DNA of 64,000 bases from an uncultured Dehalococcoidia bacterium (GTDB taxonomy: Bacteria; Chloroflexota; Dehalococcoidia; GIF9; UBA5629). The stretch's first letter is position 1; each line of letters opens with the position of its first letter. A program made the translations under genes and the position numbers. Of the stretch, positions 36,883 to 57,617 are shown in pieces. The stretch lies in assembly GCA_903844685.1 (NCBI GenBank), contig CAIMUM010000194.1:17292-81291 (forward strand), written 5' to 3'. The notes beneath the pieces were generated by a model, which did not search any database, was not told the DNA's origin, and worked only from the letters and a program-made list of their open reading frames with translations.

Positions 36883-37076
36883 GAAATATGAACCTGAAAC
36901 AATCTTTAACAAGACACCATGCCGCTTTACCCGGATGTGTCTTTACTAAAGTGAATGCCCGTGTTACACGGGGAAGAAACCCGGCGAGCTTATAAAGGTG
37001 TGATCCAACGGTTCCGGGCCTGCGACCTGGCGGGGGCGACCCGGGGACCGTGGAAATAAATAATAGGAGGTTCTTC

Positions 37077-37187: not shown

Positions 37188-37564
37188 TAAAGAAATTAGC
37201 TTCCGTAAAAATCGGCGTCCTGGAATTCGTGTACAAGTTCCTCATTGTACTTTTCGTTATCATGCCGGTATGCATGGGCGTATGCTTCTGGATAGGGGTG
37301 CAGGCTGACGCCGCGCTCAATATCCACTTACTGAAGTTCATCATGCCATTCGTCGGTTCAGCAGTGGGCTTTTTCTTCACCGCTCTGCTCATCTTGGCCG
37401 GGCACAAGCAGGAAGCCCCCACCACCACGGAGGAATCAGCCCAACCGTATTCAGACAGACTGGTCAGCAGGCATGTCGAAGCGGCGGAAGCGGCATCACT
37501 GCCGAAGCCATCGATACCGCGCGCCGGCTTCGCCGCGCCATATTCTGTGCAGGGAGGTAAATAG
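37184..37564 (+). CDS. Hypothetical membrane protein (2-3 TM helices, acidic/Ala-rich tail)
   Basis: A hydrophobic N-terminal half is followed by a polar tail. The ATG at 37184 overlaps the upstream peptide's stop. No homology was recognised. Confidence 0.4.
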   Translation: MIKKLASVKIGVLEFVYKFLIVLFVIMPVCMGVCFWIGVQADAALNIHLLKFIMPFVGSAVGFFFTALLILAGHKQEAPTTTEESAQPYSDRLVSRHVEAAEAASLPKPSIPRAGFAAPYSVQGGK

Positions 37565-37570
37565 TACATC

Positions 37571-40526: not shown

Positions 40527-40528
40527 AA

Positions 40529-40867
40529 TCAGCCGGTGAAGCTATTGTTAGCCGCATCCTCGTTTTCGAAGATGTTGAATAGCTGTGTGAACCCGGCAAT
40601 ATCGAATACTTCTCTGATATTGGGCTTCATGCAGGCGAGCTTAATATCGCCTTGCTGCTTGCGCACCTTTTTCAATTGTGATAGAAAGACCCGCAGGCCG
40701 GAGCTGCTGATATACTCGAGCCCCTCCAGGTTCAACACTATTTTTACACAGCCGCTCTCGATGACAGCATCAAGTTTTTTCTCAACTTCAGCGGCACTGT
40801 ACGCATCAAGCCTACCAGTCAAACCCAGAATATTAACATCACCCGATTTCTTCCCGGTTAAATCCAA
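40529..40867 (-). CDS. STAS-domain protein (anti-sigma-factor antagonist, SpoIIAA-like)
   Basis: 112 aa STAS fold with the conserved Ser in ...YISSSGLRVF.... Confidence 0.7.
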   Translation of the reverse strand: MDLTGKKSGDVNILGLTGRLDAYSAAEVEKKLDAVIESGCVKIVLNLEGLEYISSSGLRVFLSQLKKVRKQQGDIKLACMKPNIREVFDIAGFTQLFNIFENEDAANNSFTG

Positions 40868-40982
40868 TGTGGTCTCCTTTATATCTCCAAATTTCTACAG
40901 CATATCATCATGCATCGATTTTAACATTTATATAGTTTAGCCACGTTAACTTAACATATTTTTAGGAAACCCGTTAAGGCAC

Positions 40983-42437: not shown

Positions 42438-42599
42438 ATAAACCTCCACTAATAAATATCAATTGTACCAGCTTTCACCTTTCGTTTATATCCCTCGTCT
42501 GATCCCGCATTGCCGCACCGGACCATCTTCATCCGGCGCGGCAATTTCTATCAGGACCAGGTTAACAGCATCCTGCCGATTGTTCATCCAGCATATAAA

Positions 42600-43913: not shown

Positions 43914-44219
43914 TTATGTTCCTCCTATTTTATACTTGAGCTTAATCACACGTTAATTTGTTTGGCCTTGCGCAACATCGCTACAGACCCACCTACACTT
44001 CAACATATAAGCGATCAACGTAACCCTGGCAACCGGACATAGAAATGGCAAAAGCTTCATTTTCTCGAAATCCGTACTGTAAAGTTCCCGCTATTACCAC
44101 GAGATTACCTCTGGCAACAAGGTTTTGCGCAGTCTCAACGATTGGCCATCTATCAGGGCCAAATTGCCCCATACTTCACTTCCAAGTTTCAACTTTACAA
44201 TGTCAGGATTATAAATCGC

Positions 44220-44252
44220 AATCTTGACGCTGTCAAGATTAGACAGTAATAT
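44220..44252 (+). promoter_or_regulatory. TetR operator palindrome (AATCTTGAC-GCT-GTCAAGATT) overlapping -35 of a TTGACG-17-TAATAT promoter; near-leaderless TetR
   Basis: A perfect 9+9 inverted repeat lies at 44220-44240. The -35 is at 44224-44229 and the -10 at 44247-44252, 6 nt from the TetR ATG (44259). No SD is present. Confidence 0.55.
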
Positions 44253-44258
44253 TATCTC

Positions 44259-44933
44259 ATGCCTGTCAAAAAATATCATCACGGTGACCTAAAGAACGCA
44301 CTAATTAAGGCAGGGATTGAAATCCTCTCCAAAGAGGGCGTTCATGGCCTTAGCCTGCGTAAAGTGGCACAAAAAGCAGGCGTCAGTCACACGGCACCCT
44401 ACTCACACTTTGCCGACAAGCAGTCGCTTATAGCCGCCATCTCGATAGAAGGCTTCCGGACAATATATGAGCTGTTGGATGGCGTAATTCAGCGTTATCA
44501 GGGCAAACCTCTCAGGCAATTGGTGGAAGGCGCCTGGGCGTACGTTCAATTCGCACTCAGTGACCCGGCACATTTCAAGGTGACCTTATCCAGCGTACTG
44601 GAGAGGGAGAAAGACTATCCCGCGTTCGTTGAGATGTCTCACAAAGGCTTTGGGACGGTCGTCGGGATAGTCGAGACGTGCCAGGCAGCAGGTGTGCTAC
44701 GCCCCGGGCCAGCAGATGTGGAAGCCATAAGTGTTTGGAGCACTGTCCACGGGTTTGTATCTCTTCTTCTGGAAGGACAAATCTATCATTCGATTCTGGA
44801 GCGCTATACGGTGCGTGAATTGCTGATTTCTTGCCTGGCACATGTTACCCTGGTCGAACTGACTCCTGAAAGCTATTCGGAAATGGAGCCCTCCGGGATA
44901 TATATTTACCCTGCCATAAGTACACCAGCCTAA
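44259..44933 (+). CDS. TetR/AcrR-family transcriptional regulator
   Basis: The N-terminal TetR HTH is LSLRKVAQKAGVSHTAPYSHF. Confidence 0.85.
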   Translation: MPVKKYHHGDLKNALIKAGIEILSKEGVHGLSLRKVAQKAGVSHTAPYSHFADKQSLIAAISIEGFRTIYELLDGVIQRYQGKPLRQLVEGAWAYVQFALSDPAHFKVTLSSVLEREKDYPAFVEMSHKGFGTVVGIVETCQAAGVLRPGPADVEAISVWSTVHGFVSLLLEGQIYHSILERYTVRELLISCLAHVTLVELTPESYSEMEPSGIYIYPAISTPA

Positions 44934-44994
44934 GACGCATCACGTAATCAGGGATGTAACGAATGGTTGGCAACCTGGCCGAATCAGGATATCG

Positions 44995-46530
44995 CTATAT
45001 CTGACTACACCTCGCTTTATTTATCCTCTCGTAAAATCCCTTCAAATCAGGATACAACTCCTTATAGGAACGGTAAAGGAAATCATAAACCTCGCGGTTC
45101 TTGGCCTGAGGTTTAAAAGTATATGCGACGCCAACCACTTTTTTCAACGACTCAAAATCCTTGTATATACCAAGCCCCACTGCTGCTGCCATTGCCACTC
45201 CCACCGCCCCTGCCTCCTGGGCATTACGCACCGGTTCTATTATCTTGCCCGTAACATCGGCGATAATTTGCATCCAGGGATGGCCCAGAGCTCCGCCTCC
45301 AATTACCCTGAGCGAGGGTAAAGGAAATTTATATTCCTTTTCCACCCTTTCGATTATCCAGCGGATATTATAGGCCACACCCTCATATACGGCGCGCAGC
45401 AGGTGTTCGCGTGTATGCTCAGGTGTGAGATTCAAGAACCCGGACCGTATATAGCTATCCGCTACCGGCGATCTCTCTCCGTACATCCATGGCATAAATA
45501 TAAGGTAGTCAGAGCCCGCAGGCACTTCCATTACCTTGCCGTCCATATAACCATATATATTGGCAATAGTGGCATCGGCGTTCTCGGTCCTGCATACCTG
45601 TTCGCCCAACCATTTAAGGCAACCGCCGGCCGTTTCCATCTGTGCCAGGAGCAGGGCTTTGTCCGGATCAGCCGACTGAATGGCGGCGATACCATTTTTT
45701 CCGGTCGGGGTCTTCCGCGTAACAACCCCAACCCAGGCCGACGTCCCCATACTTATGTGGCCATCTCCCTCTCCCACCGCACCTGAACCAACGGCGGCAG
45801 AGGCCGTATCTCCGGCTCCACCCATCACAGGCGTGCCCTCAAGCAGTCCAAACTGTTCCGCAGCCTCTTTCGTCAGGCTACCAATTTTGTCAATAGAGCG
45901 TGTTAGCGGCGGCAATTTCGATGTGTCAAATCCGACGTACGCGAAAACAGCTTTCAGCCATTCCTTTTTCTTTAAGTCCAGGCCGAAACCCGAGGCATTG
46001 TTCCAGTCCATGGACATACTTCCGGTGCAACGGTATTTCAGGAAACCGTTTAGATCCAGAAAGAATTTCATTTTTCCATAGGTTTCCGGCTCGTTTTTTT
46101 TGAGCCAGAGCAGTTTGGGCATCGCATCCTTCCCGTTAATCTCTGCTCCCGCTATGGCAGCAAACACCGAAGGGCCCAGAAACTTGTTCATCATAAATTT
46201 GGCCTCTTCAGCCGCGCGGTTATCCATCCATATTATTCCCTGCCTTAAAGCCACCCCTTTTTCATCCATCGGCACAATGCCAAGCATCTGGGTGGAAAAC
46301 GTGAGGCATAAAATGTCCGCAGGCGACACTCCGGTTTCTGACAGAAGTTGCTTTGTGGTACTGGTGACGGCGCTCCACCAATCTTCAGGGTCTTGCTCCG
46401 CCCACCCTGGCCTGGGATATTTAATATCGTATGGATGAAGTACCTTGCCGTGGACTTCCCCCCCCACACCCACTAGAACCGCCTTGTTGTTAGTGGTCCC
46501 CACATCATGAGCAATTATGTATTTCGCCAT
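44995..46530 (-). CDS. FGGY-family carbohydrate kinase (xylulokinase/glycerol-kinase-like)
   Basis: The FGGY N- and C-terminal domains are present (HDVGTTNNKAVLV, GGGALGHPWMQIIADV). Confidence 0.8.
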   Translation of the reverse strand: MAKYIIAHDVGTTNNKAVLVGVGGEVHGKVLHPYDIKYPRPGWAEQDPEDWWSAVTSTTKQLLSETGVSPADILCLTFSTQMLGIVPMDEKGVALRQGIIWMDNRAAEEAKFMMNKFLGPSVFAAIAGAEINGKDAMPKLLWLKKNEPETYGKMKFFLDLNGFLKYRCTGSMSMDWNNASGFGLDLKKKEWLKAVFAYVGFDTSKLPPLTRSIDKIGSLTKEAAEQFGLLEGTPVMGGAGDTASAAVGSGAVGEGDGHISMGTSAWVGVVTRKTPTGKNGIAAIQSADPDKALLLAQMETAGGCLKWLGEQVCRTENADATIANIYGYMDGKVMEVPAGSDYLIFMPWMYGERSPVADSYIRSGFLNLTPEHTREHLLRAVYEGVAYNIRWIIERVEKEYKFPLPSLRVIGGGALGHPWMQIIADVTGKIIEPVRNAQEAGAVGVAMAAAVGLGIYKDFESLKKVVGVAYTFKPQAKNREVYDFLYRSYKELYPDLKGFYERINKARCSQI

Positions 46531-46700: not shown

Positions 46701-47681
46701 ATGACAGAGCGCACATATATCACGTTATATAAATCCGGAGAATTAGCAGCAAGAGCTGTCGCACTCCAGGAGCAGCTATATGACTGTGATATCTGTCCGC
46801 GCGCATGCCACGTAAACAGGTTTGAGAATATGCGGGGATTTTGCGGGTCAGGACAACTTATCTCGGTCTCAAGCTACTGTGATCATCACGGAGAAGAACC
46901 TGCCCTATCGGGAACAAGAGGTTCCGGGACAATATTTTTCCATAACTGCAACCTGCGGTGCAAATACTGCCAGAATCACCAGATAAGCCAGGGTACTGAT
47001 AACCGGTCACAGACTTTAAGCAGCAAAGAACTGGCAGCAATAATGCTTCATTTACAGAATGATTTACGCTGCCACAACATTAACCTCGTATCACCCTCGC
47101 ATTATGTGCCGCAAATAGTGGAAGCCCTGTGCCACGCCATTCCCGGAGGACTGCATATACCTTTAATATATAATACCAATGGTTATGATTCCCTGGATAC
47201 CCTGAAAATGCTGGACGGGGTCATAGATATTTACCTGCCTGACCTTAAGTACGCTGATAACCGGTATGCGGATGAATTTTCTCATTGCAGCAATTACGTG
47301 GAATCAAGCAGGCCTGCGATAAAGGAAATGTACCGGCAGGCCGGCAATCTTGTCAGCGACGAATCCGGTATCGCACAAAGTGGACTGATTGTGCGTCATT
47401 TAATCCTGCCAAACGATATTGCAGGCAGCGCTGACTCCCTGCGCTGGTTGGCAAGGGATATCTCAAAGGATGTAACGGTCAGCGTTATGGCCCAGTATTA
47501 TCCCTGCTTTCTCGCCTGGCAGGAACCAATGCTTTCCAGGAAAATCACGTCTGCAGAATACGCCCGGGTCGTGGAAATACTGCAGTCACTGCATTTAGAC
47601 AATGGCTGGTTGCAGGAAATAGATTCATCCGAATTCTACCTGCCTGACTTCCAGCGTCAAGGACACCCGTTCTCACAGTAG
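46701..47681 (+). CDS. Radical SAM protein, AmmeMemoRadiSam-system / PflA-like activase type
   Basis: An N-terminal CDICPRAC (CxxCPxxC) precedes the radical SAM CNLRCKYCQNHQIS motif. A TTG at 46689 is an alternative start. Confidence 0.65.
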   Translation: MTERTYITLYKSGELAARAVALQEQLYDCDICPRACHVNRFENMRGFCGSGQLISVSSYCDHHGEEPALSGTRGSGTIFFHNCNLRCKYCQNHQISQGTDNRSQTLSSKELAAIMLHLQNDLRCHNINLVSPSHYVPQIVEALCHAIPGGLHIPLIYNTNGYDSLDTLKMLDGVIDIYLPDLKYADNRYADEFSHCSNYVESSRPAIKEMYRQAGNLVSDESGIAQSGLIVRHLILPNDIAGSADSLRWLARDISKDVTVSVMAQYYPCFLAWQEPMLSRKITSAEYARVVEILQSLHLDNGWLQEIDSSEFYLPDFQRQGHPFSQ

Positions 47682-47696
47682 TAAGAGGGCCGGCAA

Positions 47697-48401
47697 TTAC
47701 AACCTATCTTTCAGGTCGCGTCTAAAAAGACCTCTTATAAAGTTATGGCCTGATTTGGCCCAAATTTCCTTTATCCTTGGTATATACATCAAGACGGGCA
47801 CAGCAGTAAGAAAAATGGCGTATATAAACAAACCTGTATCTTTGTATACAAACCAGGCAATAAGCCAAAATGCGATAAAAGATATGGCATATGCCGCAGT
47901 TGGCCAGCGGGTAACCAATGTCAGAATAAGGAATGATCCAAGGAATATCAAATCGCCCAGAGGAATGGGCAGTTTAATGGACCCCATATCCACCCAGTTT
48001 ATCCACGCAAGCAGAAAGGCCAGAACACCGATAGCAGTGGCGCCGCCTTTTCCGCCTTTGAAATTGAGGAACACCGGGAAATTATGTCCGGCGATAACTG
48101 CTATTCCCGCAGCCATTTCAACAGGAACTACCATGTTGCCTGCAACCACAAATAAATATGTTGCTATCAGATATGATAGCAGTACGGCCAGGATACCTTT
48201 ACATACATCTGACGCTAATACCAGCATACCCGGCCAGAAACCTATGGTATAAAAGGTATTCATAGCCCCCATATTGTGACTGCCGACTTTCCTGATATCA
48301 ATCCCTTTGAAGGCCCGCCCAACCAGGTAGGCCGAGGGGATGGAACCTATCAGGTAACTAACGACCATTGATGTCATGAATGCTAATACTGTATTTATCA
48401 T
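47697..48401 (-). CDS. plsY: Glycerol-3-phosphate acyltransferase PlsY
   Basis: PlsY motifs GSHNMGAMN and HNFPVFLNFKGGKGGAT are present in a polytopic membrane protein. Confidence 0.85.
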   Translation of the reverse strand: MINTVLAFMTSMVVSYLIGSIPSAYLVGRAFKGIDIRKVGSHNMGAMNTFYTIGFWPGMLVLASDVCKGILAVLLSYLIATYLFVVAGNMVVPVEMAAGIAVIAGHNFPVFLNFKGGKGGATAIGVLAFLLAWINWVDMGSIKLPIPLGDLIFLGSFLILTLVTRWPTAAYAISFIAFWLIAWFVYKDTGLFIYAIFLTAVPVLMYIPRIKEIWAKSGHNFIRGLFRRDLKDRL

Positions 48402-48473
48402 ACTAATTACCCACCATGACCATATTATAGACCTAAATTACACTAAATGTGCGTACGCAGAACTACGTATTTC

Positions 48474-48944
48474 TCAAAAACTCAGGAACTGGTTTCTGGC
48501 GATCAGCGCCACCTGTCCACGCTGATTAGTATAGGTCGTTTCCACGGTAGTAACCATGGTGGGCCCCATCCTGGTTTCCTTGCCCTCGATATTGGCAATC
48601 TTGATAACGGCGACCAGCATATCACCGGCGCCGATGGGCGCCTTGAACTCATATTCAACGCTCCCGTCCAGGTTCCCCCGCGGCGCGCCGGCGGCAATGA
48701 GTTTCTCTACAAATTGAAACATATCAAAACCGCTGGTAACAGGCCAACCAATAAAGGAGGGCGGCGCTTTAAGCCTGCCAAATTCGCTCTGCGCTGCGAA
48801 TTCCACATCGTTATGCGTGGGGTTGGTGTCACCGACAGCCCGGGCGAATCGTTGGATAGCGCCTTCTTCAATCTTATAAAGCAAAGGCGGCTCAGCGGTC
48901 CCAATAAGTTTTTTTAATCCGTCTGTCAATACGAACACTGCCAT
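48474..48944 (-). CDS. MaoC-N-terminal-like hotdog protein (FAS1-DH-N/ChsH1-like hydratase subunit)
   Basis: Hotdog fold. It is a paralog of 49562..50032. The RBS is GGAGG. Confidence 0.65.
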   Translation of the reverse strand: MAVFVLTDGLKKLIGTAEPPLLYKIEEGAIQRFARAVGDTNPTHNDVEFAAQSEFGRLKAPPSFIGWPVTSGFDMFQFVEKLIAAGAPRGNLDGSVEYEFKAPIGAGDMLVAVIKIANIEGKETRMGPTMVTTVETTYTNQRGQVALIARNQFLSF

Positions 48945-49062
48945 TTCAGGTTTCCTCCATTTCAGGTTGTCAGGTAAGCCGTCAACAAAATATCGCTGGT
49001 TGGCATGTACGTCTCATACTCAACCAGCGATACCGGGTTACAACACTATTTTTTATTAATGA

Positions 49063-49530
49063 TTATTTGGCCCTGGATGGTAAAGCCGTGAGCGCACTGC
49101 CGGTGGTAGTTTTCTCTCCCTTCCCATTCTCCACCCAGATCTCGCACTCCACGAGCGATTCTTCACTCTCCACATATTTCTTAGTGACCTTGCCCTTGCA
49201 CAACCAGGTCTCGCCATCATGCGGGTCATCAAAGGTTTTCATCTTGCGCGGGTAATCCATACCACGATAGCGGCATGATAATTTCTTTAACCCGCCTTTT
49301 TCACCTATCCAGTCCGTCATCAGGTTAACCAGCCACGCCCTCTTCAGCAGGCCGTGGACGATCGGTTTGCCCACGCCCAGGCTTTTAGCGAAATCCTCTT
49401 CATAGTGCAACGGGTTGAAATCACCTGACGCGCCTGCATATTGCACCAGCATCCTGGTAGTGGCTATTTTTTTTAGTGGCGTGATCTCACTGCCAACTTC
49501 GACATCTTCGTAATAAAGCTGTTTAGCCAT
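49063..49530 (-). CDS. MaoC-like (R)-specific enoyl-CoA hydratase hotdog protein
   Basis: MaoC dehydratase motif ...GDFNPLHYEEDFA.... The RBS is GGGAGG. Confidence 0.7.
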   Translation of the reverse strand: MAKQLYYEDVEVGSEITPLKKIATTRMLVQYAGASGDFNPLHYEEDFAKSLGVGKPIVHGLLKRAWLVNLMTDWIGEKGGLKKLSCRYRGMDYPRKMKTFDDPHDGETWLCKGKVTKKYVESEESLVECEIWVENGKGEKTTTGSALTALPSRAK

Positions 49531-49561
49531 TGTTCCTCCCGCAAAATAATAAGTTGCCCGG

Positions 49562-50032
49562 TTAGAAATTAAGGAAGGTATTACGCGTAATCAGCGCAAC
49601 TGCTCCCCTTTGATTTGTGAACGTGCTCTCAATGGTCGTGACCATGGTAGGCCCCATCTTGGTTTCACGTCCTTCAATTCCCGCAATCTTTATCTCCATT
49701 ACCAGTATGTCTCCATCGCCTATGGGCGCAAGGAAATCATACTCAACTCCACCGTCGAGCAGTCCCATCGGGGCTCCGGCTTTAGCAAGCCTCTCGAAAA
49801 GCTTGAACATATCGAATCCGCTTGCTATTGGCCAACCGGTGAATCCCGGCGGGGCCATTACGCGGCCCCACTTGCTCTGCGCGGCATATTCAACGTCATT
49901 GAACAGCGGGTTGGAATCTCCCACTGCGCGGGCGTAACGCTGAATTGCCCCTTCCTCGATTTTCATTACAACCGGTTTTTCTTTTTGACCGATCAATTGC
50001 TTTAAACTATCTGTCACAACAAACGCAGCCAT
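49562..50032 (-). CDS. MaoC-N-terminal-like hotdog protein (ChsH1-like hydratase subunit)
   Basis: Paralog of 48474..48944 (…EGAIQRYARAVGDSNPLFNDVEYA…). Confidence 0.65.
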   Translation of the reverse strand: MAAFVVTDSLKQLIGQKEKPVVMKIEEGAIQRYARAVGDSNPLFNDVEYAAQSKWGRVMAPPGFTGWPIASGFDMFKLFERLAKAGAPMGLLDGGVEYDFLAPIGDGDILVMEIKIAGIEGRETKMGPTMVTTIESTFTNQRGAVALITRNTFLNF

Positions 50033-50051
50033 TTATTTCCGTCCTGATATC

Positions 50052-51245
50052 TTACTTGCCCACGATGCATACGCTTACAACGCACATAGAGGGGAAGCCA
50101 CCCATATTATGCGTAAGTCCAACCTTCGGGTCCTTGAGTTGCCTTTTATCAGCTTTGCCCTGCAGCTGTTTATACATTTCATACATCATGCGCAGGCCGC
50201 TGGCGCCGATCGGATGTCCAAAGCATTTCAAGCCGCCGTCGATTTGTATAGGCTGAGCACCGTCATAATTGAACCGCCCTGCATCTATATCGTCCTTTAC
50301 CTTGCCTCGGGCGCTGAACTGCAGGTCTTCCATGGTAACAGCTTCAGTAATGGAGAAGCAGTCATGTACTTCAGCCATGCTGACTTCCTCACGGGGGTTC
50401 TTGATACCGGCCTCTTTATAAGCCATAATACCGGCGCGGTATGAGGGCTCTACATGAGCGCCATCCCACTTGGTATAAAGCATCTCTTCACCCGAGGATA
50501 CTGAAATCTGAATAGACTTGACAAACACGGGGTCCGGCCTGAATTTTTTGACCATATCCGCCCCGCAGACTATGGCTGCGGCTGACCCGTCACTGACCCC
50601 ACAACAGTCAAAAAGCCCGAGCGGCCAGGCTATTACCGGAGCATTCATTACCTGTTCAACGGTAACCTCTTTGCGAAGGTGGGCTTTAGGATTCAGTGCG
50701 CCATTCCTGTGACTCTTGGCTGAAATCTTAGCCAGCATCATTTTTCCATCCTGGGGGTTAAGGTTGTATTTTGAGAAATACTTGGTGGCCATCATGGCGA
50801 ATCCGCCGGGAGCGGTTAAATTGAAAGAATTCAACGGCATTTTATATCCCATGCCGCCCGCCAGGGGCAACCCGCCATAACCGGTATCCTTCAATTTCTC
50901 CATGCCCAATGCCAGGCAGATATCATATGCTCCTGAAGCAACCCCGTACACTGCGCCACGCAGGGCTTCAGAACCGGTGGCACAGAAATTCTCCACCCTG
51001 GTTATGGGGATAAAAGGCAACTTTAATGTGGTCCCGAGGATTGTAGCGCCACGGCCGACACTGATATCGGGCATGTGGACGCCCCACCATGCTGCCTGGA
51101 TATCTTTTTTCTCCAACCCGGAATCCGCCAGGCACTCGACGAAAGCTTCCACCATGAGGTCTTGCGGACTCGCATCAAACCGTTCCCCGAACTTGGTGCA
51201 GCCCATCCCGATTATAGCTACTTTATCTTTAATACCTTCTGCCAT
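50052..51245 (-). CDS. SCP-x-type (nonspecific lipid-transfer-protein-like) 3-ketoacyl-CoA thiolase with intact catalytic residues
   Basis: The Cys nucleophile is in ENFCATGS. The His is in CFGHPIGASG. A C-terminal Cys is present. The RBS is AGGAGG. Confidence 0.8.
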   Translation of the reverse strand: MAEGIKDKVAIIGMGCTKFGERFDASPQDLMVEAFVECLADSGLEKKDIQAAWWGVHMPDISVGRGATILGTTLKLPFIPITRVENFCATGSEALRGAVYGVASGAYDICLALGMEKLKDTGYGGLPLAGGMGYKMPLNSFNLTAPGGFAMMATKYFSKYNLNPQDGKMMLAKISAKSHRNGALNPKAHLRKEVTVEQVMNAPVIAWPLGLFDCCGVSDGSAAAIVCGADMVKKFRPDPVFVKSIQISVSSGEEMLYTKWDGAHVEPSYRAGIMAYKEAGIKNPREEVSMAEVHDCFSITEAVTMEDLQFSARGKVKDDIDAGRFNYDGAQPIQIDGGLKCFGHPIGASGLRMMYEMYKQLQGKADKRQLKDPKVGLTHNMGGFPSMCVVSVCIVGK

Positions 51246-51279
51246 TTTAATTTCCTCCTTGCGTTATCCTTAATTACGA

Positions 51280-52722
51280 TCAGGCAACTATGGGCATGGC
51301 TTTCCAGCCGTAGTTAATAGCAGCGCGTTTTTCATCTGCGGCCTTAATCCTGAAAGCTAATTCGACCGGCATACCAACCTTTATAGTATTCGGATCACAG
51401 TCTGTGAAATCCAACCCGGCGCGTCCGCCACCCTTAAAATCGATAAAGCCGTACGATGCGGGCGGGTCGATGCTTGGAGCCAGGAAGTCGCTGGTATAGG
51501 TAAAGATATCACCCAGCTTATCAGAGAACTTGTAAGCCTCCATCTGGTCAACGGCTCCGCAGTCCGGGTTCGGGCATATCCTCTGGACCGGCCAGCTCGG
51601 CGTACCGCACTTCTTGCACTTGGTTCCAACCATGCCGTAGATCTCCCGGCTCTCGCGCGAAATGATGGAAAATGATGTAAATATCGTTTCCTCGCCGCGT
51701 ATTCCGATTTCGCAAGGCATGAGTTTGCGGAACGCGAGGTATTTTTCATAGCTGCCCAGGGCTACTTTATTGGCGAGATTACGCTTGATTGCTTTCTTAT
51801 CCTTTATCATGGCTATTTTATCGGTAACGGTAAGATACATGGCGTCGCACCCCTGTCCAAAGCTGATGACCATAATCTTGTCACCGGGTTTAGCATCTTC
51901 TAATGCGGCCACCAGCATCATCAAAGTCTGCGCTACACCCGTATCGCCAACCGTTGTGAGCATGGGTTCCTGCACCTGTTCCGGCGCCAGTCCCAGAGTC
52001 TTACCAAGGGCTGCATGCGCCCCTGTAAAAGCACAGGCGTAGATGACCTTACTGAAATCCTTGGCAGTTAAATTATATTTCTTAACCAACCCCGCTGCCG
52101 CCTCCGGTATAAACTTCATGTATCCGGCGTCCCTTATAAAGCGTTCCTCCCACATATGCTCGAGGCGCTCACCCTCAAGACGGCGCCGGTCAACAAAATC
52201 ATGAGTAGTGCAGTACGAGCCATCGATAGTAGCAACCACATCATCCTTCCCCAACAAAAAGGCAGCTCCACCATCACCATAGGTATAATCGCCATTGCTG
52301 CCAACCTTGCTCACGCGGCAATCAGCTGCCGATATCAGGCAATTATTCAAAGAACCCGATGAAACCGCATCCGCCGCCGCCAGTAGTGCTGCAGTACCGG
52401 ATTTGGTGGAATCTGTGAAATCGGCTGTCCTGCAATTAGTGTTAAGATCTAATGCAGCAGCTATGATACCCGCATTTTGCCTCAAGGAATATGTCTGAGA
52501 AGTTGTAGCGAAGTAGCATCCATCTACCTTGCCTGAGTCTTCACCCCTAAGACAGTCCTTGGCTGCCGCTACCGCCATTGTAATACTATCCTCGTCCCAG
52601 TTAGCGACCGCCTTTTCACCCCTCAATGGCGCAAAGCCCAAAAATAATAACGCCATCTGCATAATATTGCGATCCAACCGGAACCTGGGGATGTGCGCTC
52701 CATACGACTTGATACCTACCAT
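51280..52722 (-). CDS. HMG-CoA-synthase-like condensing enzyme fused to a C-terminal DUF35 (Zn ribbon + OB fold) domain
   Basis: The N-terminal ~340 aa resemble archaeal-type HMGCS (MVGIKSYGAHIPRFRL..., GCYFATTS active-site Cys region). The C-terminal CKKCGTPSWPVQRICPNPDCG Zn ribbon plus OB fold matches the stand-alone DUF35 genes. The RBS is AGGAGG. Confidence 0.65.
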   Translation of the reverse strand: MVGIKSYGAHIPRFRLDRNIMQMALLFLGFAPLRGEKAVANWDEDSITMAVAAAKDCLRGEDSGKVDGCYFATTSQTYSLRQNAGIIAAALDLNTNCRTADFTDSTKSGTAALLAAADAVSSGSLNNCLISAADCRVSKVGSNGDYTYGDGGAAFLLGKDDVVATIDGSYCTTHDFVDRRRLEGERLEHMWEERFIRDAGYMKFIPEAAAGLVKKYNLTAKDFSKVIYACAFTGAHAALGKTLGLAPEQVQEPMLTTVGDTGVAQTLMMLVAALEDAKPGDKIMVISFGQGCDAMYLTVTDKIAMIKDKKAIKRNLANKVALGSYEKYLAFRKLMPCEIGIRGEETIFTSFSIISRESREIYGMVGTKCKKCGTPSWPVQRICPNPDCGAVDQMEAYKFSDKLGDIFTYTSDFLAPSIDPPASYGFIDFKGGGRAGLDFTDCDPNTIKVGMPVELAFRIKAADEKRAAINYGWKAMPIVA

Positions 52723-52885
52723 TTTTCCTCCTTAAATCTGATTATTATTTATAATCTTGACCAACCCATTAGCCTGTGATTTTACACCATATGCCATTCA
52801 ATCTCAACAGCATTTGTGTATATTTGATTAATTAAATACCGCTGCTATTTAGTGAGCCTGATTTCAATTCTTATTGGCTATCCAA

Positions 52886-54019
52886 TTAAAGCCCGATACC
52901 TGCTGCTACTTTATCCAGGTGCATATCGGTATCTCCCAGCACGAACTCGGCGGCTTTCACCCTCCTGAAATAACAACCGATATCATGGTCCAGTGTGAAC
53001 CCGATGGCCCCGTGAATTTTAATGCCGTCTATGCATACCCTTTGATAAACATCATTAGCCTTGGCCTTGGCCATTGATACGTACATATCAGCCTTCGCTC
53101 CTGTGGATAACAACCATGCCGAATAGTAAACCATATACTGCAATCCTTCGACATCCGTAAGCATATCAACCAACTTGTGTTGAATTGCCATAAAAGCGCC
53201 GATCGGTTTATCAAATTGTTTCCTATCCTTGGCATAAGCCTGAGTCATGTCAAGGACAGCCTGGCAGGCGCCTGATACTTCCGCACATTTCAGTACCGTC
53301 GCCCGTTGCGCCAAATAATTAATGACCTTCCATCCTTTGCCAACCTTTCCCAGGACGTCCAGGCGGCCAGCCTTAACATTCTTGAAGCGCACCCTGCATA
53401 GCCCATCACCGGCAATTGAAGGTATTACATTTATGGTAACACCCCTTGATTTAGTTCTTACTATCAACAGCGTTATACCTTCATCGGCTGACTTTAATCT
53501 CCCGGTGCGGCAGGCGACGATCAAATAATCAGCTACGTGTGCAAAGGGAACAAACCATTTCTCACCGTTAATCACGTAATGCTTATCGTCAAAGCTGGCC
53601 ACAGTATTAATGTCAGATACCTCGAATTTTCCGGATTTCTCGCTTAAGGCCAGCGACCAGATATTTTTACCATCCGCTATCGGTACAAGATATTTTCTCC
53701 TTTGAGTTTCAGTCCCGAATTTGAGGATTGGCAATGCACAAAGGGCAACGGTTGAGAAAAAGGGGCCCGGCAGGATGTTTCTACCCATTTCCTCCATGAG
53801 CACAACAAGATCGAGAAAGTCCGCGCCTGTGCCATTATACTGCTCGGGAAATATCAGGCCCAGCCATCCCAGTTCTACCATCTTGGACCAGATGGAGGTA
53901 TCGTAGCCTTTCGCATCCTTTTCCAATTCCCTGACCCTTGTTTTCGGGCACTCGTTGATCAGAAAATCATGAGCCATGGTCTTCAACATATTCTGCTGCT
54001 CATTAAGATCAAAATCCAT
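52886..54019 (-). CDS. Acyl-CoA dehydrogenase family protein (377 aa; putative heteromeric-ACAD subunit)
   Basis: ACAD fold. Its N-terminus (MDFDLNEQQNMLK) parallels 30386..31519. Confidence 0.8.
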   Translation of the reverse strand: MDFDLNEQQNMLKTMAHDFLINECPKTRVRELEKDAKGYDTSIWSKMVELGWLGLIFPEQYNGTGADFLDLVVLMEEMGRNILPGPFFSTVALCALPILKFGTETQRRKYLVPIADGKNIWSLALSEKSGKFEVSDINTVASFDDKHYVINGEKWFVPFAHVADYLIVACRTGRLKSADEGITLLIVRTKSRGVTINVIPSIAGDGLCRVRFKNVKAGRLDVLGKVGKGWKVINYLAQRATVLKCAEVSGACQAVLDMTQAYAKDRKQFDKPIGAFMAIQHKLVDMLTDVEGLQYMVYYSAWLLSTGAKADMYVSMAKAKANDVYQRVCIDGIKIHGAIGFTLDHDIGCYFRRVKAAEFVLGDTDMHLDKVAAGIGL

Positions 54020-54037
54020 TTTTCGTTCTCTCCTCTA

Positions 54038-55243
54038 TTAATATGCCCTGGGCAAACCGAGCTTAAATTGTCCAACAATATTTTTCTGCACTTCACCCGT
54101 TCCGCCAGCAAGTGCAAGTCCGGGGAACATCATATACAAACGAGTGAAGTTAGCCATTAATTTCGACCATTTATAATTGATATCTACCTGTGAATACGCC
54201 CCGATAATTTCCGTGCCTGTAATCGCCAGGCGCTGCATGACAAAATCGCAATAGGCCTTGTTGCGCGCTGCCTCGTATACCGGTATCAACCCTTTGCTCA
54301 TTTTCCAGGTTATCTCGTAGCCAAACATCTTTAAGGTTTCAAGTTCTATAGCCCTTTCAGCTAATTTATGCCGCGTGACCGCATTAACTGCCAGCGGCTT
54401 ACCATTATAGCGTATTTCATTGCAGAATTTGACCATAAACTCTAATGCTCTCCTGCCTTTACCATAAAACTGCGGCGCGAAACTGTGCCTTTCAAAGGCC
54501 AGCGACTGCATTAAATGATACCACCCGCGGTTTTCTGTACCCACCAGATTCATTACCGGCACCTTCACATTATCAAAAAACAACTCATTAAAAATATGTA
54601 TACCCGCGTAATTTACTATCGGTTTAATTGTTATGCCCGGGCTTTTCATATCAAGGATTATAAGGCTGATGCCGTGCTGTTTTTTGGACGCATTGGGATC
54701 AGTCCTGGCAGCTAACCAGCACCATCGAGCCCTGTGGGCACAGCTTGTCCAAATTTTTTGCCCGTTCAATATATAGTGATCCCCTTCCCTTATCGCATTG
54801 GTTTGAATATTGGCGACATCCGAGCCTGCATTGGGTTCGCTGTAACCGGTACACCATACCCCATCCGGTTCACCGGCAGCAATGGAAGGTAAATATTTCT
54901 TACGCTGCTCCTCACTGCCAAAAATCATAAGGGACGGGCCGACCCATCCGATACCGCTCACCCCCATTGTAGTTCCGGGTATGCCCCAGTAACTCGCTTC
55001 ATCAATATAAACGTGCTGCTCGAAGAAAGAAGCGCCCTGGCCACCATACTCCTTTGGCCACGCCATTGTTAGCCAGCCCTTTTGAGCCAGTTTTTTCGAC
55101 ATGCTCATAGCGAATCCCCAGTCCTCATCACGGCTCTCTTCTTCCATTCCGCTGACGATTTCCCTGCCGGCCGTCTCTGCCCTGGCGAAATTCCTGACAT
55201 CTTCTCTTAACTTTTCTTCTTTTTGACTGAATCTAAATTCCAT
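54038..55243 (-). CDS. Acyl-CoA dehydrogenase family protein
   Basis: ACAD fold. The start was set at MEFRFSQKEE. It lies 18 nt upstream of the short ACAD gene. Confidence 0.75.
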   Translation of the reverse strand: MEFRFSQKEEKLREDVRNFARAETAGREIVSGMEEESRDEDWGFAMSMSKKLAQKGWLTMAWPKEYGGQGASFFEQHVYIDEASYWGIPGTTMGVSGIGWVGPSLMIFGSEEQRKKYLPSIAAGEPDGVWCTGYSEPNAGSDVANIQTNAIREGDHYILNGQKIWTSCAHRARWCWLAARTDPNASKKQHGISLIILDMKSPGITIKPIVNYAGIHIFNELFFDNVKVPVMNLVGTENRGWYHLMQSLAFERHSFAPQFYGKGRRALEFMVKFCNEIRYNGKPLAVNAVTRHKLAERAIELETLKMFGYEITWKMSKGLIPVYEAARNKAYCDFVMQRLAITGTEIIGAYSQVDINYKWSKLMANFTRLYMMFPGLALAGGTGEVQKNIVGQFKLGLPRAY

Positions 55244-55720
55244 CGGGTTCCCTGTTACCACTAAAACATAAAATTCAAAAAAATATTTGCACCAGTTGCC
55301 CTGGTACAAATCCCCGTGCCACAGCACTACATTTGCTGATCGCCGTGACTATTCATTAGCTGGTATTTTATTTGATATGGGAAATACTCTGGTAAACCCT
55401 GTCCTTCCAGACTACGCTGGCGCCAAGGGCACGCCATGCCAAACCATAAAAAAAGTGAGCATTAAGAATGCTGTGCCCAAGTGATGGAAAATAAAAGAGG
55501 GGTTGCCATCCCCATAACTACGTATATCTTTATGTAATCTCAGACTGCCTATCCAAAGTGAGAACGGATAGGATCCCAGCATGAATGCTGCTGTAATCAG
55601 CACTAAAACAATCACTATATCAGCCATATCAACTTCATCCGAAACTTATTTGACAATCCCAATTGCGATATGAAGCCTAAAGAGCTTGGCTGTCCAGTAA
55701 TCTCCTTAACAATAAAGATA

Positions 55721-55794
55721 CGACCCCGATGGGATTCGAACCCACGATCTCCACCGTGACAGGGTGGCATGTTAGACCGCTACACCACGGGGCC
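55721..55794 (-). tRNA. tRNA-Asp (anticodon GTC)
   Basis: The reverse complement folds as a cloverleaf. The acceptor stem is GGCCCCG/CGGGGTC with one G-U pair. The anticodon stem is CCACC/GGTGG with loop CTGTCAC. The T-loop is GGTTCGAATCC. CCA is not encoded. Confidence 0.85.
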
Positions 55795-56000
55795 AAAACG
55801 CACCGCAAAGGGTTTGCGGACTGCTGAAAAATACGGTGAAAGTCTATCAATAGACCCTTACCAGTGTCAAACTTGCCATATTATAAGCGCATCATTGATT
55901 TTTCATCCTGTTTGTTATAAGCTTACATTCGATTTAAACATTACGGTACTATTATGACACTTTATCAGGATAATCCAGGCAGGAGGATTTAGCGAATTCC

Positions 56001-57617
56001 ATGAGGATTCCATATATTTCACTGGCACTATTGATCATCGCCTCTGCAGTACTATCTTTTTTGCCGTCACGTGTTTATGCTACCAGCATAACGCTTGCTC
56101 CAAGTTCAGGTATCACAGGGTCCAAAATAGTGATGACCGGAGATGGCTTTATCGGCAAAGTAGCCACTATCTACTGGGATGATAAAAAAATAATACAGAG
56201 CGTTCCTGTTTCCAAGACCGGCCAAATAAATTATAGTTTTGAGATACCCTCCTCCGCTAAAGGCACTCATATTGTTAAGGTCACTGATGACAGCAACTGG
56301 TCAAATATAACTGCTACCGCAAATTTTTCGATTACGCCAAGCATTATGGCAGAACCACCCTTTGGCAAGATCAATACCCGCATCTATATTTTCGGATATG
56401 GTTTCGCGCCCAATGAAAGCGGCATTAAATACACCTGGGACGGAAAGCCACTTTCCAAATCGCCCATCCAGGCTGATAAAGCCGGGTCGTGGAATTCTCA
56501 ATTTGATGTCCCCCCAGATCCAAAAGGAGAATATACTATCGACGTTATGAGCGACTCGACCGGCAGCGGAGAAGTCCCCGGACTGGTTTTCACGGTTTCA
56601 CCTTTCTGCAAAGCAACACCCGTATCCGGTCCTGTCGGTACCAAAATAACACTTTCCGGTGTTGGATTCAGGCCGGGCGAAGATGGGCTTACGTTTACCT
56701 GGGATGGGCCCATCATCGATACAAACTTTGTTGCACAACCTAATGGATCTTTCAGCATTGTAATTACCGTTCCACCCTGTGTTAAAGGCCGGCATATACT
56801 GGGCATCTACGGCAGCAGTTTTACTCCTATCGGCATCGTACCTGATATTGAGTTTGAGGTGACACCCAGTATTCAACTGACCCCGAGCAATGTAATGAAC
56901 AGCAGGGACTTGAAAATCGACGGGACAGGTTATAACGAGGGTGAAATACTGGCTATTAATTACGACAAGTCCAATACAGGTGTCACCACGACGACGGACG
57001 CAAAGGGTAACTTCAGCGTTACAATCCAGGTTCCCGTAAAGCCAGGCAAAGAACACACCGTTGAAGCCACGGGCAATAAAGGCGGCCTGGCGCAGGCTAT
57101 ATATGTTTCAGGCACATTACCGCCACCGCTACCTCAGTTACTCTTTCCAGGACCAGGGGCAACTGTCCAATCAAATTATTCCGTTGTAGAGGTGATAATC
57201 AGTATATTTAAATCCACCGGCGGTTTATTTAGCGGGGGATCAATTTCCCAGTCAAACAAGCCTGCAGGGATTATAACGGCAATGAATTGGTCGGTCAGCG
57301 GCGACCAAACTGGAGTGACATATTCATTGCAAATATCCAGAACCCCTGATTTCGTTAACGTAGTTGTCAGTAAAGATGGCATCGTGGGGACCACCTATAA
57401 TCTGGATAGATCAAGCCTGGCCTCTGCCGGAACATATTACTGGAGGGTAAGAGCGTCAAACGAGACTGGCGATGTCAGTCCCTGGTCTAATTACTGGGTG
57501 TTTGAATTTGTGCCAACCTCGCCGCTGGTGATGGCCATAGCTGTTACCATTCTCATTCTGATTTTAGCCATGCTGATATTCGCCGTGCTGGCCATCATTA
57601 ACCGTAACAGGAACTAG
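56001..57617 (+). CDS. Secreted cell-surface protein with four tandem Ig-like (IPT/TIG-type) repeats, an FN3-like domain and a C-terminal TM anchor
   Basis: A signal peptide is followed by four ~88-aa repeats that each contain a G(D/Y/V)GF core. A WRVRASNETG FN3-like segment follows. The C-terminus is a hydrophobic helix plus the basic tail RNRN. Confidence 0.7.
   Translation: MRIPYISLALLIIASAVLSFLPSRVYATSITLAPSSGITGSKIVMTGDGFIGKVATIYWDDKKIIQSVPVSKTGQINYSFEIPSSAKGTHIVKVTDDSNWSNITATANFSITPSIMAEPPFGKINTRIYIFGYGFAPNESGIKYTWDGKPLSKSPIQADKAGSWNSQFDVPPDPKGEYTIDVMSDSTGSGEVPGLVFTVSPFCKATPVSGPVGTKITLSGVGFRPGEDGLTFTWDGPIIDTNFVAQPNGSFSIVITVPPCVKGRHILGIYGSSFTPIGIVPDIEFEVTPSIQLTPSNVMNSRDLKIDGTGYNEGEILAINYDKSNTGVTTTTDAKGNFSVTIQVPVKPGKEHTVEATGNKGGLAQAIYVSGTLPPPLPQLLFPGPGATVQSNYSVVEVIISIFKSTGGLFSGGSISQSNKPAGIITAMNWSVSGDQTGVTYSLQISRTPDFVNVVVSKDGIVGTTYNLDRSSLASAGTYYWRVRASNETGDVSPWSNYWVFEFVPTSPLVMAIAVTILILILAMLIFAVLAIINRNRN

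Follow-up and report, generated by a model that had tools for sequence, protein, structure and literature searches.

An HMG-CoA synthase-like protein lacking the catalytic tetrad, fused to DUF35, in a putative (R)-specific beta-oxidation operon of Dehalococcoidia

Organisation of the Operon

The DNA examined here is a 64-kb window from a Dehalococcoidia (Chloroflexota) bacterium, in which open reading frame (ORF) listing and profile searches against Pfam and NCBIfam delimit an operon of seven co-directional genes on the minus strand (48474-55243). In transcription order, they start with two acyl-CoA dehydrogenase (ACAD) genes, encoding a large, alpha-type subunit of 401 aa (54038-55243; three Pfam ACAD domains) and a small, beta-type subunit of 377 aa (52886-54019; Pfam ACAD domains). 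The third gene (51280-52722) encodes a 480-aa protein in which a domain resembling hydroxymethylglutaryl-CoA (HMG-CoA) synthase (HMGS) precedes the Pfam domains zf-ChsH2 and OB_ChsH2_C, which together make up DUF35. It is followed by the gene of a 397-aa thiolase of the SCP-x/archaeal type (50052-51245; NCBIfam PRK06157, 609 bits for a cutoff of 403) and by three genes encoding hotdog proteins: a FAS1_DH/HadA-like protein of 156 aa (49562-50032; Pfam FAS1_DH_region, 1.2e-20), a MaoC/HadB-like protein of 155 aa (49063-49530; Pfam MaoC_dehydratas, 7.5e-14) and a second HadA-like protein of 156 aa (48474-48944; FAS1_DH_region, 1.3e-22). The order and the domain calls of the original prediction made for this DNA are thus confirmed.

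The intergenic gaps are, in the same order, 18, 163, 34, 19, 31 and 118 nt. The 163-nt gap had been presented as the single exception to a tight spacing; it is real, but a second long gap, of 118 nt, separates the MaoC gene from the last hotdog gene. In the same way, the size of 377 aa given for the small ACAD is right, while the large one has 401 aa rather than the 429 initially reported. The latter figure is that of the longest ORF, which begins with a GTG at 55327, whereas the ATG at 55243, the very coordinate that closes the operon in the original prediction, leads to 401 aa, the length found in orthologues and in public gene calls on contigs carrying an identical locus. A terminator-like hairpin sits within the 28-codon extension ahead of this ATG.

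The synteny search that had been proposed earlier finds the gene order of the block again in six related loci from metagenome-assembled genomes (MAGs) of Dehalococcoidia (L001-L006); the block is not a chance arrangement. The closest loci belong to Dehalococcoidia MAGs, for instance from SPRUCE peat, with fusion proteins 81-86% identical to the one studied here, and exactly the same fusion protein is also encoded by JGI and ENA metagenome contigs, with peat and wetland samples (JGI 3300023311 and 3300022653) among the sources.

The HMGS-DUF35 Fusion and the Neighbouring Thiolase

The 480-aa protein consists of an HMGS/PhlA-like thiolase-fold domain (residues 1 to ~335; 51718-52722) and a DUF35 module made of a rubredoxin-like Zn ribbon and an OB fold (residues ~356-480; 51280-51657 including the stop codon). 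Residues 2-332 match PhlA (9skh, 8e-42; 5m3k, 8e-36) and the HMGS of the archaeal thiolase/HMGS/DUF35 complex (6esq_I, 1.5e-34) in the PDB, while residues 356-479 match the DUF35 chain of the same complex (6esq_E, 2.6e-17). The AlphaFold model of the protein, whose mean pLDDT of 72 falls below 50 in the linker and several loops, is of moderate confidence and was therefore used for fold assignment only. Foldseek searches with this model also give PhlA and the complex-type archaeal HMGS (6et9_I) as best folds, with TM-scores, normalised to target length, of 0.74 and 0.79. The earlier proposal that an HMGS-family domain and DUF35 are joined within one polypeptide is thus borne out by Pfam, PDB matches and Foldseek.

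The profile searches are more reserved about the N-terminal domain. The suggested Pfam check retrieves the DUF35 profiles in the fusion, but neither HMG_CoA_synt_N nor HMG_CoA_synt_C at E<=0.01, ACP_syn_III_C being the sole match in the N-terminal domain. The HMGS models of NCBIfam all score under their cutoffs (PRK04262, 223.3 bits for 244; TIGR00748, 161.7 for 353; TIGR01835, 64.6 for 360). An affiliation to FabH or ketoacyl synthase III, which had been considered as an alternative from the start, can be discarded, the FabH models reaching 43 bits against 223 for HMGS, and the fold searches ranking PhlA and HMGS first.

The alignment to 6esq_I allows the catalytic tetrad E82/C114/H238/N270 of HMGS (Methanothermococcus thermolithotrophicus numbering, named in PMC12960953) to be located in the fusion, where it reads T74/T106/A229/D260. 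This replacement is general among 118 full-length homologues. The E82 position is occupied by Thr in 116 of them and by Val in the two others; the C114 position by Thr, Asn, Ala, Val, Ser, Ile, Pro or Met, and never by Cys; the H238 position by Ala, Pro or Ser; and the N270 position by Asp or Glu. None of the 118 has a restored tetrad or a Glu at the E82 position. Conversely, the Zn-ribbon cysteines C369, C372, C383 and C388 are invariant in the whole set. By its residues as well as by the curated score thresholds, the protein falls outside active HMG-CoA synthases (EC 2.3.3.10). Judged from these alignments, its N-terminal domain is a member of the HMGS family by descent that is devoid of catalytic residues, and the name of condensing enzyme first given to the protein was an interpretation rather than an observation. 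The nucleophilic Cys and the general base being gone, HMG-CoA synthase chemistry would be impossible in either direction.

This also removes the basis of the main functional proposal of the original prediction, in which an active HMGS-like enzyme run in reverse would cleave a 3-hydroxy-3-methylacyl-CoA into a ketone and acetyl-CoA and thereby provide a way past beta-methyl branches without oxygen. It is true that the domain descends from HMGS, that its core is highly conserved and that the operon looks like a beta-oxidation one. However, E is changed to T, C to T, H to A and N to D, no nucleophilic Cys is found in the 118 homologues, mutation of the archaeal tetrad abolishes HMG-CoA formation, and a fused complex from Pseudomonas fluorescens is devoid of HMGS activity (PMC12960953). 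Furthermore, PhlA, the closest solved relative, is non-catalytic (PMC12960953). We regard this cleavage as extremely improbable, and the locus gives no evidence for a beta-methyl bypass.

The thiolase encoded 34 nt downstream of the fusion gene presents the opposite picture. In the PDB, it is closest to the archaeal complex's thiolase (6esq_A, 8.4e-61), and it matches BbsB (1.8e-42) and, just at 5e-22, PhlC as well. Cys88 (NFCATGS), HDCF (294) and GHP (343) align with the catalytic motifs of the archaeal thiolase. The prediction of an active SCP-x thiolase therefore holds at the level of motifs, all of which (Cys, HDxF, GHP) are kept, and the enzyme appears catalytically competent. The 480-aa protein most likely only holds this real thiolase in place.

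Such a pair was described recently (PMC12960953; Nat Commun 2026;17:2196, January 2026) in a survey of 1,030 bacterial loci with co-located genes for HMGS, for an acetyl-CoA acetyltransferase (ACAT) and for DUF35, 1,001 of which are devoid of polyketide synthase (PKS) or nonribosomal peptide synthetase (NRPS) context. In the PfACAT/HMGS-DUF35 complex of P. fluorescens, the HMGS is fused to DUF35 and its E-C-H-N tetrad is gone, while Cys, HDxF and GHx are all present in the ACAT. Assayed in vitro, this complex thiolyses acetoacetyl-CoA but yields no HMG-CoA and no acetoacetyl-CoA, and thiolysis is almost lost with the H294Y mutation (PMC12960953). In the view of its authors, the complex is an evolutionary intermediate that has yet to enter a pathway (PMC12960953). 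The proteins of the window display every sequence feature of this type, namely the fusion, the loss of the tetrad and the co-located intact thiolase, and the PKS/NRPS-free neighbourhood is also shared. By these features, the locus belongs to the recently described class that combines a dead HMGS-DUF35 scaffold with an active thiolase. The two genes adjoin in 74 of 80 loci, which, together with what was published on P. fluorescens, suggests that the pair would form a physical complex with thiolysis-only activity. The setting is different: P. fluorescens is an aerobic gammaproteobacterium, whereas the pair lies within operons for ACADs, hydratases and short-chain dehydrogenases/reductases (SDRs) here, in an anaerobic Dehalococcoidia bacterium, and in dozens of genomes from anaerobes.

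All three modules are likewise homologous to those of the archaeal thiolase/HMGS/DUF35 complex (8.4e-61, 1.5e-34 and 2.6e-17), the genes are adjacent and DUF35 is probably the bridging module in both. However, the archaeal HMGS is an active, separate polypeptide that pulls condensation toward mevalonate, whereas the domain found here is tetrad-less, fused to DUF35 and placed in a beta-oxidation context rather than in isoprenoid synthesis. DUF35 is also the obligatory partner of an HDxF-bearing SCP-x-type thiolase in the benzoylsuccinyl-CoA thiolase BbsAB and in the Sulfolobus KT/DUF35 fatty acid synthase complex, and in the latter it recruits in addition an SDR and a MaoC enzyme. Unlike the fusion, the DUF35 proteins of these two systems stand alone, without an HMGS-like domain.

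A comparison with the Friedel-Crafts C-acetyltransferases PhlACB (Pseudomonas protegens) and MucABC (Streptococcus) bears on another possibility: the HMGS-like domain could have been re-purposed as a chamber binding acyl groups or CoA, or as a site of allosteric control or new catalysis, or the complex could be a CoA-dependent C-acyltransferase of the PhlACB/MucABC kind. PhlA and MucA are tetrad-less and structural, no solved structure matches the fusion better than PhlA does, T74, S105, D101, H236 and D260 are strongly conserved, and PhlACB and MucABC keep a shared CoA chamber despite the loss of the tetrad. On the other hand, their thiolase-like subunit acylates aromatic acceptors, lost HDxF and has a remodelled pocket, and their genes lie in PKS/NRPS clusters. 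The thiolase of the window keeps Cys, GHP and HDxF (as HDCF) and is far nearer to true thiolases than to PhlC, no PKS or NRPS gene is found in the window, and the neighbours are beta-oxidation genes. We consider a re-purposed domain or a C-acyltransferase rather unlikely.

The Acyl-CoA Dehydrogenase Pair and the Hydratase Subunits

The large ACAD finds its best PDB match in ChsE4 of Mycobacterium tuberculosis (4x28_A, 3e-59), followed by Tcur3483. Its motif LAFERHS aligns with LNHERVA of ChsE4, whose Glu, counted as residue 247, is reportedly the catalytic base (Yang et al. 2015). The position of Glu376 in medium-chain acyl-CoA dehydrogenase (MCAD) is occupied by Gly, and the canonical motif YSEPNAGSD is present. 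The small ACAD matches ChsE5 (4x28_D, 2.7e-35) and Tcur3481. Reading of the alignment places a Leu at its MCAD Glu376 position (FVLGD vs YEGT) and a Gln at the ChsE4-type position, and its EPxxGSD motif is degenerate (SEKSGKFEVSD). It keeps HGAIGF, which we read as the Q/HxxGxxG[FY] motif contacting the flavin adenine dinucleotide (FAD) of the partner. The large subunit is thus probably the catalytic, flavin-binding one and the small subunit is probably non-catalytic. Complementary loss of the catalytic and FAD motifs between subunits is a hallmark of the heterotetrameric ACAD family. The motif losses being complementary here, and the two ChsE4/ChsE5-like genes being 18 nt apart, the alpha/beta heteromer initially proposed is supported at the sequence level. 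The top NCBIfam models are PimC-like for the large subunit (227 bits, below the cutoff of 624) and PimD-like for the small one (203 bits, below 653), scores so far under the equivalog cutoffs that an identity with PimC/PimD was rejected.

Among the hotdog proteins, the 49063-49530 product carries the hydratase-2 motif GDFNPLH. NCBIfam relates it to HadB (5e-16), and M. tuberculosis HadB is its best PDB match (5zy8_B/4rlj_B, 6e-13), the alignment including the D/H motif. In the 49562-50032 product, which matches the NCBIfam models HadA and fused HadA-HadB, the motif is GDSNPLF, without His; its gene directly follows the thiolase gene, a position conserved in Dehalococcoidia loci. These motifs point to the former as the catalytic subunit of an (R)-specific enoyl-CoA hydratase and to the latter as non-catalytic. 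The 48474-48944 product is 69% identical to the 49562-50032 one, and its gene has a GGAGG ribosome-binding site of its own. Among 80 loci examined, this third hotdog gene is confined to the window and L003, which indicates a recent lineage-specific duplicate. An Asp/His hydratase-2 subunit beside a FAS1_DH-type subunit without His is the configuration of HadAB-type enzymes, with the caveat that the duplicate retains His (GDTNPTH). A 156-aa antisense ORF (48447-48917, plus strand) nearly overlays the last hotdog gene; lacking any family support, it is in all likelihood a shadow ORF.

The split hydratase with one catalytic subunit that had been foreseen is thus retained, but not its attribution to the ChsH1/ChsH2 type: no ChsH structure appears among the PDB matches of the hotdogs, HadB being matched instead, and HadA-HadB-HadC is the closer analogue. 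In M. tuberculosis hadA-hadB-hadC, alternative non-catalytic subunits tune the chain-length specificity. The gene order found here mimics this non-catalytic, catalytic, non-catalytic arrangement, and by analogy a similar tuning may be envisaged. HadABC is to be seen as an analogue and not as an orthologue, since the hotdog scores are far below the Had equivalog cutoffs, and the third hotdog, unlike HadC, is a recent duplicate found in this sub-lineage only. In the same way, the ACAD pair shares with ChsE4-ChsE5 (FadE26-FadE27) of M. tuberculosis the Glu247 equivalent in the large subunit and the absence of a catalytic Glu in the small one. For both systems, the identity is low, the scores are far under the equivalog cutoffs, and the substrates would be CoA rather than acyl carrier protein (ACP) esters.

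These likenesses could also suggest a module dedicated to the degradation of steroid or bile-acid side chains, of ChsE/ChsH/Ltp type. The large ACAD is closest to ChsE4, from the cholesterol side-chain pathway of M. tuberculosis, in which heteromeric MaoC hydratases are known too, and Pfam named the parts of DUF35 after ChsH2. However, the hotdogs match HadB and not ChsH1/ChsH2, and DUF35 is carried by an HMGS-like domain and not by a MaoC one as expected for ChsH1-ChsH2-Ltp2. The partner retains the thiolase Cys and appears to be an active thiolase, not an Ltp2-type aldolase. No steroid-ring catabolic gene is found in the window, and the hosts of the family are anaerobic Dehalococcoidia and Desulfobacterota, including alkane degraders. 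A dedicated steroid role therefore seems very unlikely to us.

Distribution, Neighbourhoods and Fusions in Other Genomes

A first search retrieved more than 2,500 homologues of the fusion protein; among the 120 matches listed, nearly all have about 480 aa. They are often annotated as "hydroxymethylglutaryl-CoA synthase" or "OB-fold domain-containing protein". A library of 1.84 billion representatives yields 541 clusters (50% identity) at E<=1e-30, the best 150 of which are nearly all full-length fusions with 31-45% identity. The fusion occurs in at least 557 species genomes, mainly from Dehalococcoidia, Desulfobacterota (Syntrophales, Smithella, Desulfobacterales), Syntrophomonadaceae and Actinomycetota. 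Desulfosarcina alkanivorans PL12, which is cultivable, has two copies, and its scaffold-SDR-SCP2 form has 909 aa.

The ORFs of 80 loci were classified against reference proteins, with Pfam spot checks; since many contigs are short, the neighbour counts are lower bounds. The thiolase gene immediately follows the fusion gene in 74 of these loci, and five of the six others end at a contig edge. Neighbours include MaoC-type hydratases (44 loci), SDRs of MFE-2 type (38), ACADs (37), AMP-ligases (19), crotonase-type enoyl-CoA hydratases (15) and CoA_transf_3 proteins, classified with a racemase-like reference (14). The CoA_transf_3 protein of a Smithella locus (L079) is closest to the alpha-methylacyl-CoA racemases Far/Mcr (8.7e-57).

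Four layouts can be distinguished. In the clade of the window (layout A), the order is acadL-acadS-fusion-thiolase-hotA-hotB(-hotA'). In a sister Dehalococcoidia clade (layout B), it is fusion-thiolase-hotA-hotB-SDR-SDR-acadL-acadS, with a divergent AMP-ligase gene. Layout C, seen for example in D. alkanivorans (L060), is ACAD-fusion-thiolase-SDR-fused hydratase 2-acadL-acadS. In layout D, from Desulfobacterales, Smithella and Syntrophaceae, the fusion runs on into an SDR domain (17 loci) and then, in 13 of the 17, into an SCP2 domain, giving scaffold proteins of ~690-920 aa followed by thiolase and ACAD genes. A hydratase2-SDR(-SCP2) protein, which corresponds to a bacterial MFE-2 with a permuted domain order, precedes the scaffold in 15 of these 17 loci. 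The 17 loci are L053-L057, L063-L068, L070 and L075-L079 (e.g., L055:8001-10730 and L055:5818-7965). In D. alkanivorans PL12, the SDR-fused type (L068) and the unfused type (L060) lie ~30 kb apart.

Further representatives carry the scaffold extended by two SCP2 domains or by an SDR. Through such Rosetta-stone fusions, the scaffold is physically tied to a lipid-binding domain and to the step of the (3R)-hydroxyacyl-CoA dehydrogenase. A 1204-aa ORF in L061 and the 723-aa protein P0175 were set aside, as they do not appear to be genuine informative fusions. Nothing specific was found in the literature about the physiological role of the complex in anaerobic hydrocarbon degraders.

A Putative (R)-Specific Beta-Oxidation Module

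Taken together, these data make it quite probable that the locus covers all but one of the four activities in a beta-oxidation cycle of (R)-specific type, in which a dead-HMGS/DUF35 scaffold is attached to the thiolase. An ACAD of alpha2beta2 type, with a catalytic large subunit and a non-catalytic small one, would convert an acyl-CoA into a 2-enoyl-CoA. The heteromeric MaoC hydratase, made of the catalytic HadB-like subunit and either of the two HadA-like specificity subunits, would then add water to give a (3R)-hydroxyacyl-CoA. Its oxidation to a 3-oxoacyl-CoA would require an SDR of MFE-2 type from outside the operon, the likeliest being that at 26042-26986, before the SCP-x-type thiolase and CoA would release a shortened acyl-CoA and acetyl- or propionyl-CoA. 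The 480-aa fusion would be no enzyme of this cycle but a structural partner solubilising and positioning the thiolase, as PhlA/PhlB and the archaeal HMGS/DUF35 proteins do for the thiolase subunits of their own complexes, and it may also dock the SDR.

The candidate for the fourth enzyme (26042-26986, plus strand; 314 aa) lies ~22 kb from the operon and is the only SDR detected in the window. Its best PDB matches are the (3R)-hydroxyacyl-CoA dehydrogenase of yeast MFE-2 (2et6, 3.7e-94) and 17beta-HSD4 (1zbq, 1.9e-65). It is 62-66% identical to the SDR encoded within the operons of layout B (L010, L012, L016, L018, L019, L041) and shares 43% identity with the scaffold-fused SDR domain of Desulfobacterales (layout D). 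Given these relationships, it is probably the (3R)-hydroxyacyl-CoA dehydrogenase of the module.

On the best reading, the module is the bacterial counterpart of the peroxisomal MFE-2/SCPx system, which, with AMACR, performs the beta-oxidation of 2-methyl-branched and bile-acid acyl-CoAs. Both combine a hydratase 2 (MaoC), a (3R)-dehydrogenase of the SDR family (17beta-HSD4 in peroxisomes) and an SCP-x-type thiolase with the same stereochemistry; SCP2 domains and racemase-like genes are also shared, in related bacterial loci. The locus differs by the use of an ACAD instead of an acyl-CoA oxidase, by split subunits, by the dead-HMGS/DUF35 scaffold and by its prokaryotic anaerobic host. The substrate is probably a lipophilic acyl-CoA, possibly 2-methyl-branched or otherwise bulky, as suggested by the SCP2 domains, the racemase-like genes, the heteromeric ACADs and the alkane-degrading hosts. 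Among these features, the SCP2 domains, the racemase-like genes and the alkane degraders come from related loci and not from the organism of the window.

Several points weigh against the proposed module. The operon has no 3-hydroxyacyl-CoA dehydrogenase gene, and the distant SDR is assigned to it by orthology to the SDRs found within operons elsewhere. Neither an electron-transfer flavoprotein (ETF) nor another electron acceptor for the ACAD was found in the 64-kb window. The case for this protein and its Dehalococcoidia homologues is built on sequence, and the likeness to the P. fluorescens complex on published architecture and motifs. Complex formation in this organism, the catabolic direction, the use of the distant SDR and the substrate are inferred. 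Furthermore, T74, R81-Q82-N83, D101, S105 and H236, which ring the former active site, are invariant or nearly so; this conservation exceeds the need of a passive scaffold, so that a ligand-binding role or a catalytic role of another kind is conceivable.

An (R)-specific SDR and a MaoC enzyme would suit biosynthesis too, as in the archaeal fatty acid synthesis complex. The operon could thus serve synthesis, as a complex for reverse beta-oxidation or for chain elongation independent of ACP that resembles the fatty acid synthase complex of Sulfolobus, in which a DUF35 protein assembles a thiolase, a ketoreductase and a MaoC dehydratase (bioRxiv 10.1101/2024.07.05.601840). The assembly mediated by this protein is biosynthetic (bioRxiv 10.1101/2024.07.05.601840), an SDR and a hydratase of (R)-specific type are used in synthesis, and the archaeal ancestor complex drives condensation. 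Yet the redox partner is a ChsE4/ChsE5-like ACAD pair and not an enoyl-CoA reductase of the medium-chain dehydrogenase/reductase type, and AMP-ligases, racemase-like genes and SCP2 domains in related loci are typical of catabolism. The HMGS, the enzyme that pulls the reaction, being dead here, nothing would drive the unfavourable condensation, and the P. fluorescens complex failed to condense acetyl-CoA. A synthetic role appears decidedly unlikely.

The (R)-specific beta-oxidation module can also be extended into a wider proposal, which we advance only tentatively and consider doubtful. More than a chaperone-like partner of the thiolase, the tetrad-less HMGS-DUF35 protein would be the hub around which a complete and widespread metabolon for anaerobic beta-oxidation is organised, the prokaryotic counterpart of MFE-2/SCPx. 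It could dock the (3R)-dehydrogenase and perhaps the hydratase, and its conserved chamber could pass lipophilic acyl-CoAs between sites, whether 2-methyl-branched, alkane-derived or isoprenoid-derived.

Putative Transcription Signals and Flanks

The 163-nt intergenic region between the ACAD pair and the fusion gene (52723-52885, minus strand) contains a promoter-like element and an inverted repeat, revealed by a consensus scan and alignment. The former, TTGAGA-17-TAAAAT at 52807-52779, has a -35 TTGNGA and an extended -10 TGTGTAAAAT that are conserved in seven related loci, and it may act as a promoter. The inverted repeat (52860-52885, minus strand) lies right after the acadS stop; it reads TTGGATAGCCAA in the window and TTGACCGGTCAA in L002 and in L004-L006, and might serve as the operator of a regulator of TetR or MarR type. 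The window has a TetR gene at 44259-44933 (plus strand), and L012 has a MarR gene beside its operon. The conservation of both elements hints that the ACAD pair and the fusion-thiolase-hydratase genes may have separate promoters.

In the 118-nt gap, RNA folding predicts a terminator-like hairpin with a U tract (48983-49034, minus strand; dG -35.9 kcal/mol, z -3.95), and none of 200 shuffled sequences folds as well. L003 has an equivalent hairpin with different stem bases and compensatory changes. Termination, attenuation or stabilisation of the transcript are alternative candidate roles. An Rfam search of 47600-56100 found only a tRNA-Asp, and no riboswitch or other known RNA in either the 163-nt or the 118-nt gap.

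This tRNA-Asp gene (55720-55795) is located just upstream of the operon, on the minus strand, as is a truncated copy of a second PlsY paralogue, diverged and reduced to 71 aa (55412-55627, minus strand). A full-length PlsY gene (47697-48401) lies just downstream. A recent insertion of the operon into plsY was considered and ruled out: the upstream paralogue is longer in the relatives L003-L006, which points to the decay of a paralogue and not to an insertion scar, and L001-L006 show synteny in the flanks (PlsY, radical SAM, FGGY kinase).

Other Genes of the Window

A second acyl-CoA cluster (14105-22519, plus strand) encodes an iron-dependent alcohol dehydrogenase, an ACAD, a CrtC-like lipocalin/hydratase, three SCP-x-like proteins, two of which are 70% identical to each other, and two stand-alone DUF35 proteins. 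None of the three SCP-x-like proteins has the thiolase Cys, GHP or the His of HDxF (with SEYY or YDPC in place of this motif); they are therefore not thiolases and may be Ltp2/Sal-like retro-aldolases or inert partners. If cleavage of a hydroxyacyl-CoA into a carbonyl compound and an acyl-CoA occurs in this genome, this cluster is a better candidate than the operon described above.

The catabolic island continues over 22951-34113. It includes a classical thiolase (22951-24171, minus strand), a CrtI/amine-oxidase-like flavoprotein (27050-28390, minus strand), an AMP-ligase (28404-29993, minus strand), a second pair of small and large ACADs (30386-31519 and 31573-32769, minus strand), the small one being 49% identical to the small subunit of the operon, and another large-type ACAD (32809-34113, minus strand). 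It also encodes the MFE-2-type SDR (26042-26986) and a YfdE/SUGCT-like family III CoA-transferase (CoA_transf_3; 24764-25957), for which an alpha-methylacyl-CoA racemase identity was rejected, its best matches being the true CoA-transferases YfdE, FCOCT and SUGCT and not Mcr. Further large-type ACADs with the same GLGLPR C-terminus are found at 15372-16556 and 62800-63984. The ACAD island is bordered by an 84-aa fragment (34123-34377, minus strand) that matches the rve_3 integrase core and is probably a transposase remnant, and several ORFs without family match lie at 34315-37569, beside a helix-turn-helix regulator and a rhodanese.

The 39219-46530 cluster is unrelated to the operon. It encodes an acetyl-CoA hydrolase/transferase (39219-40526, minus strand), a class-III aminotransferase (40983-42449, minus strand), a RuBisCO large-subunit-like protein (42600-43913, minus strand), the TetR regulator and an FGGY sugar kinase (44995-46530, minus strand). 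With a kinase next to it, the RuBisCO-like protein may be part of a salvage pathway of form IV or form III type. The beginning of the window carries a FadH-like old yellow enzyme (OYE) with a pyridine-nucleotide-disulphide oxidoreductase (992-3007), a URO-D-like protein with an adjoining B12-binding protein, resembling a corrinoid methyltransferase system (3018-4998, minus strand), an alpha-L-fucosidase (5301-6710, minus strand), and a Liv-type ABC transporter (6913-11587, minus strand) adjoined by an AMP-ligase (11779-13482, minus strand).

Significance of the Family

An oxygen-independent beta-methyl bypass would have been important. What the locus adds to current knowledge is that the class of dead HMGS-DUF35/thiolase pairs is embedded, across many anaerobes, in what are probably (R)-specific beta-oxidation modules. 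Public metagenome annotations give thousands of members of this family the label "hydroxymethylglutaryl-CoA synthase", which is wrong. The family members not being HMG-CoA synthases, mevalonate or HMG-CoA reconstructions drawn from such genes for Dehalococcoidia, Syntrophales and Desulfobacterales would be wrong as well.

The sole published study of the fused architecture found no pathway for it. Gene neighbourhoods and the scaffold-SDR-SCP2 fusions now give a testable assignment, that of a thiolase module of (R)-specific beta-oxidation in anaerobes, including the alkane-degrading Desulfosarcina and Smithella. If the protein were in addition the hub of a metabolon, this would overturn the published view of the complex class as an evolutionary intermediate without a pathway and would give a function to a family present in at least 557 species.

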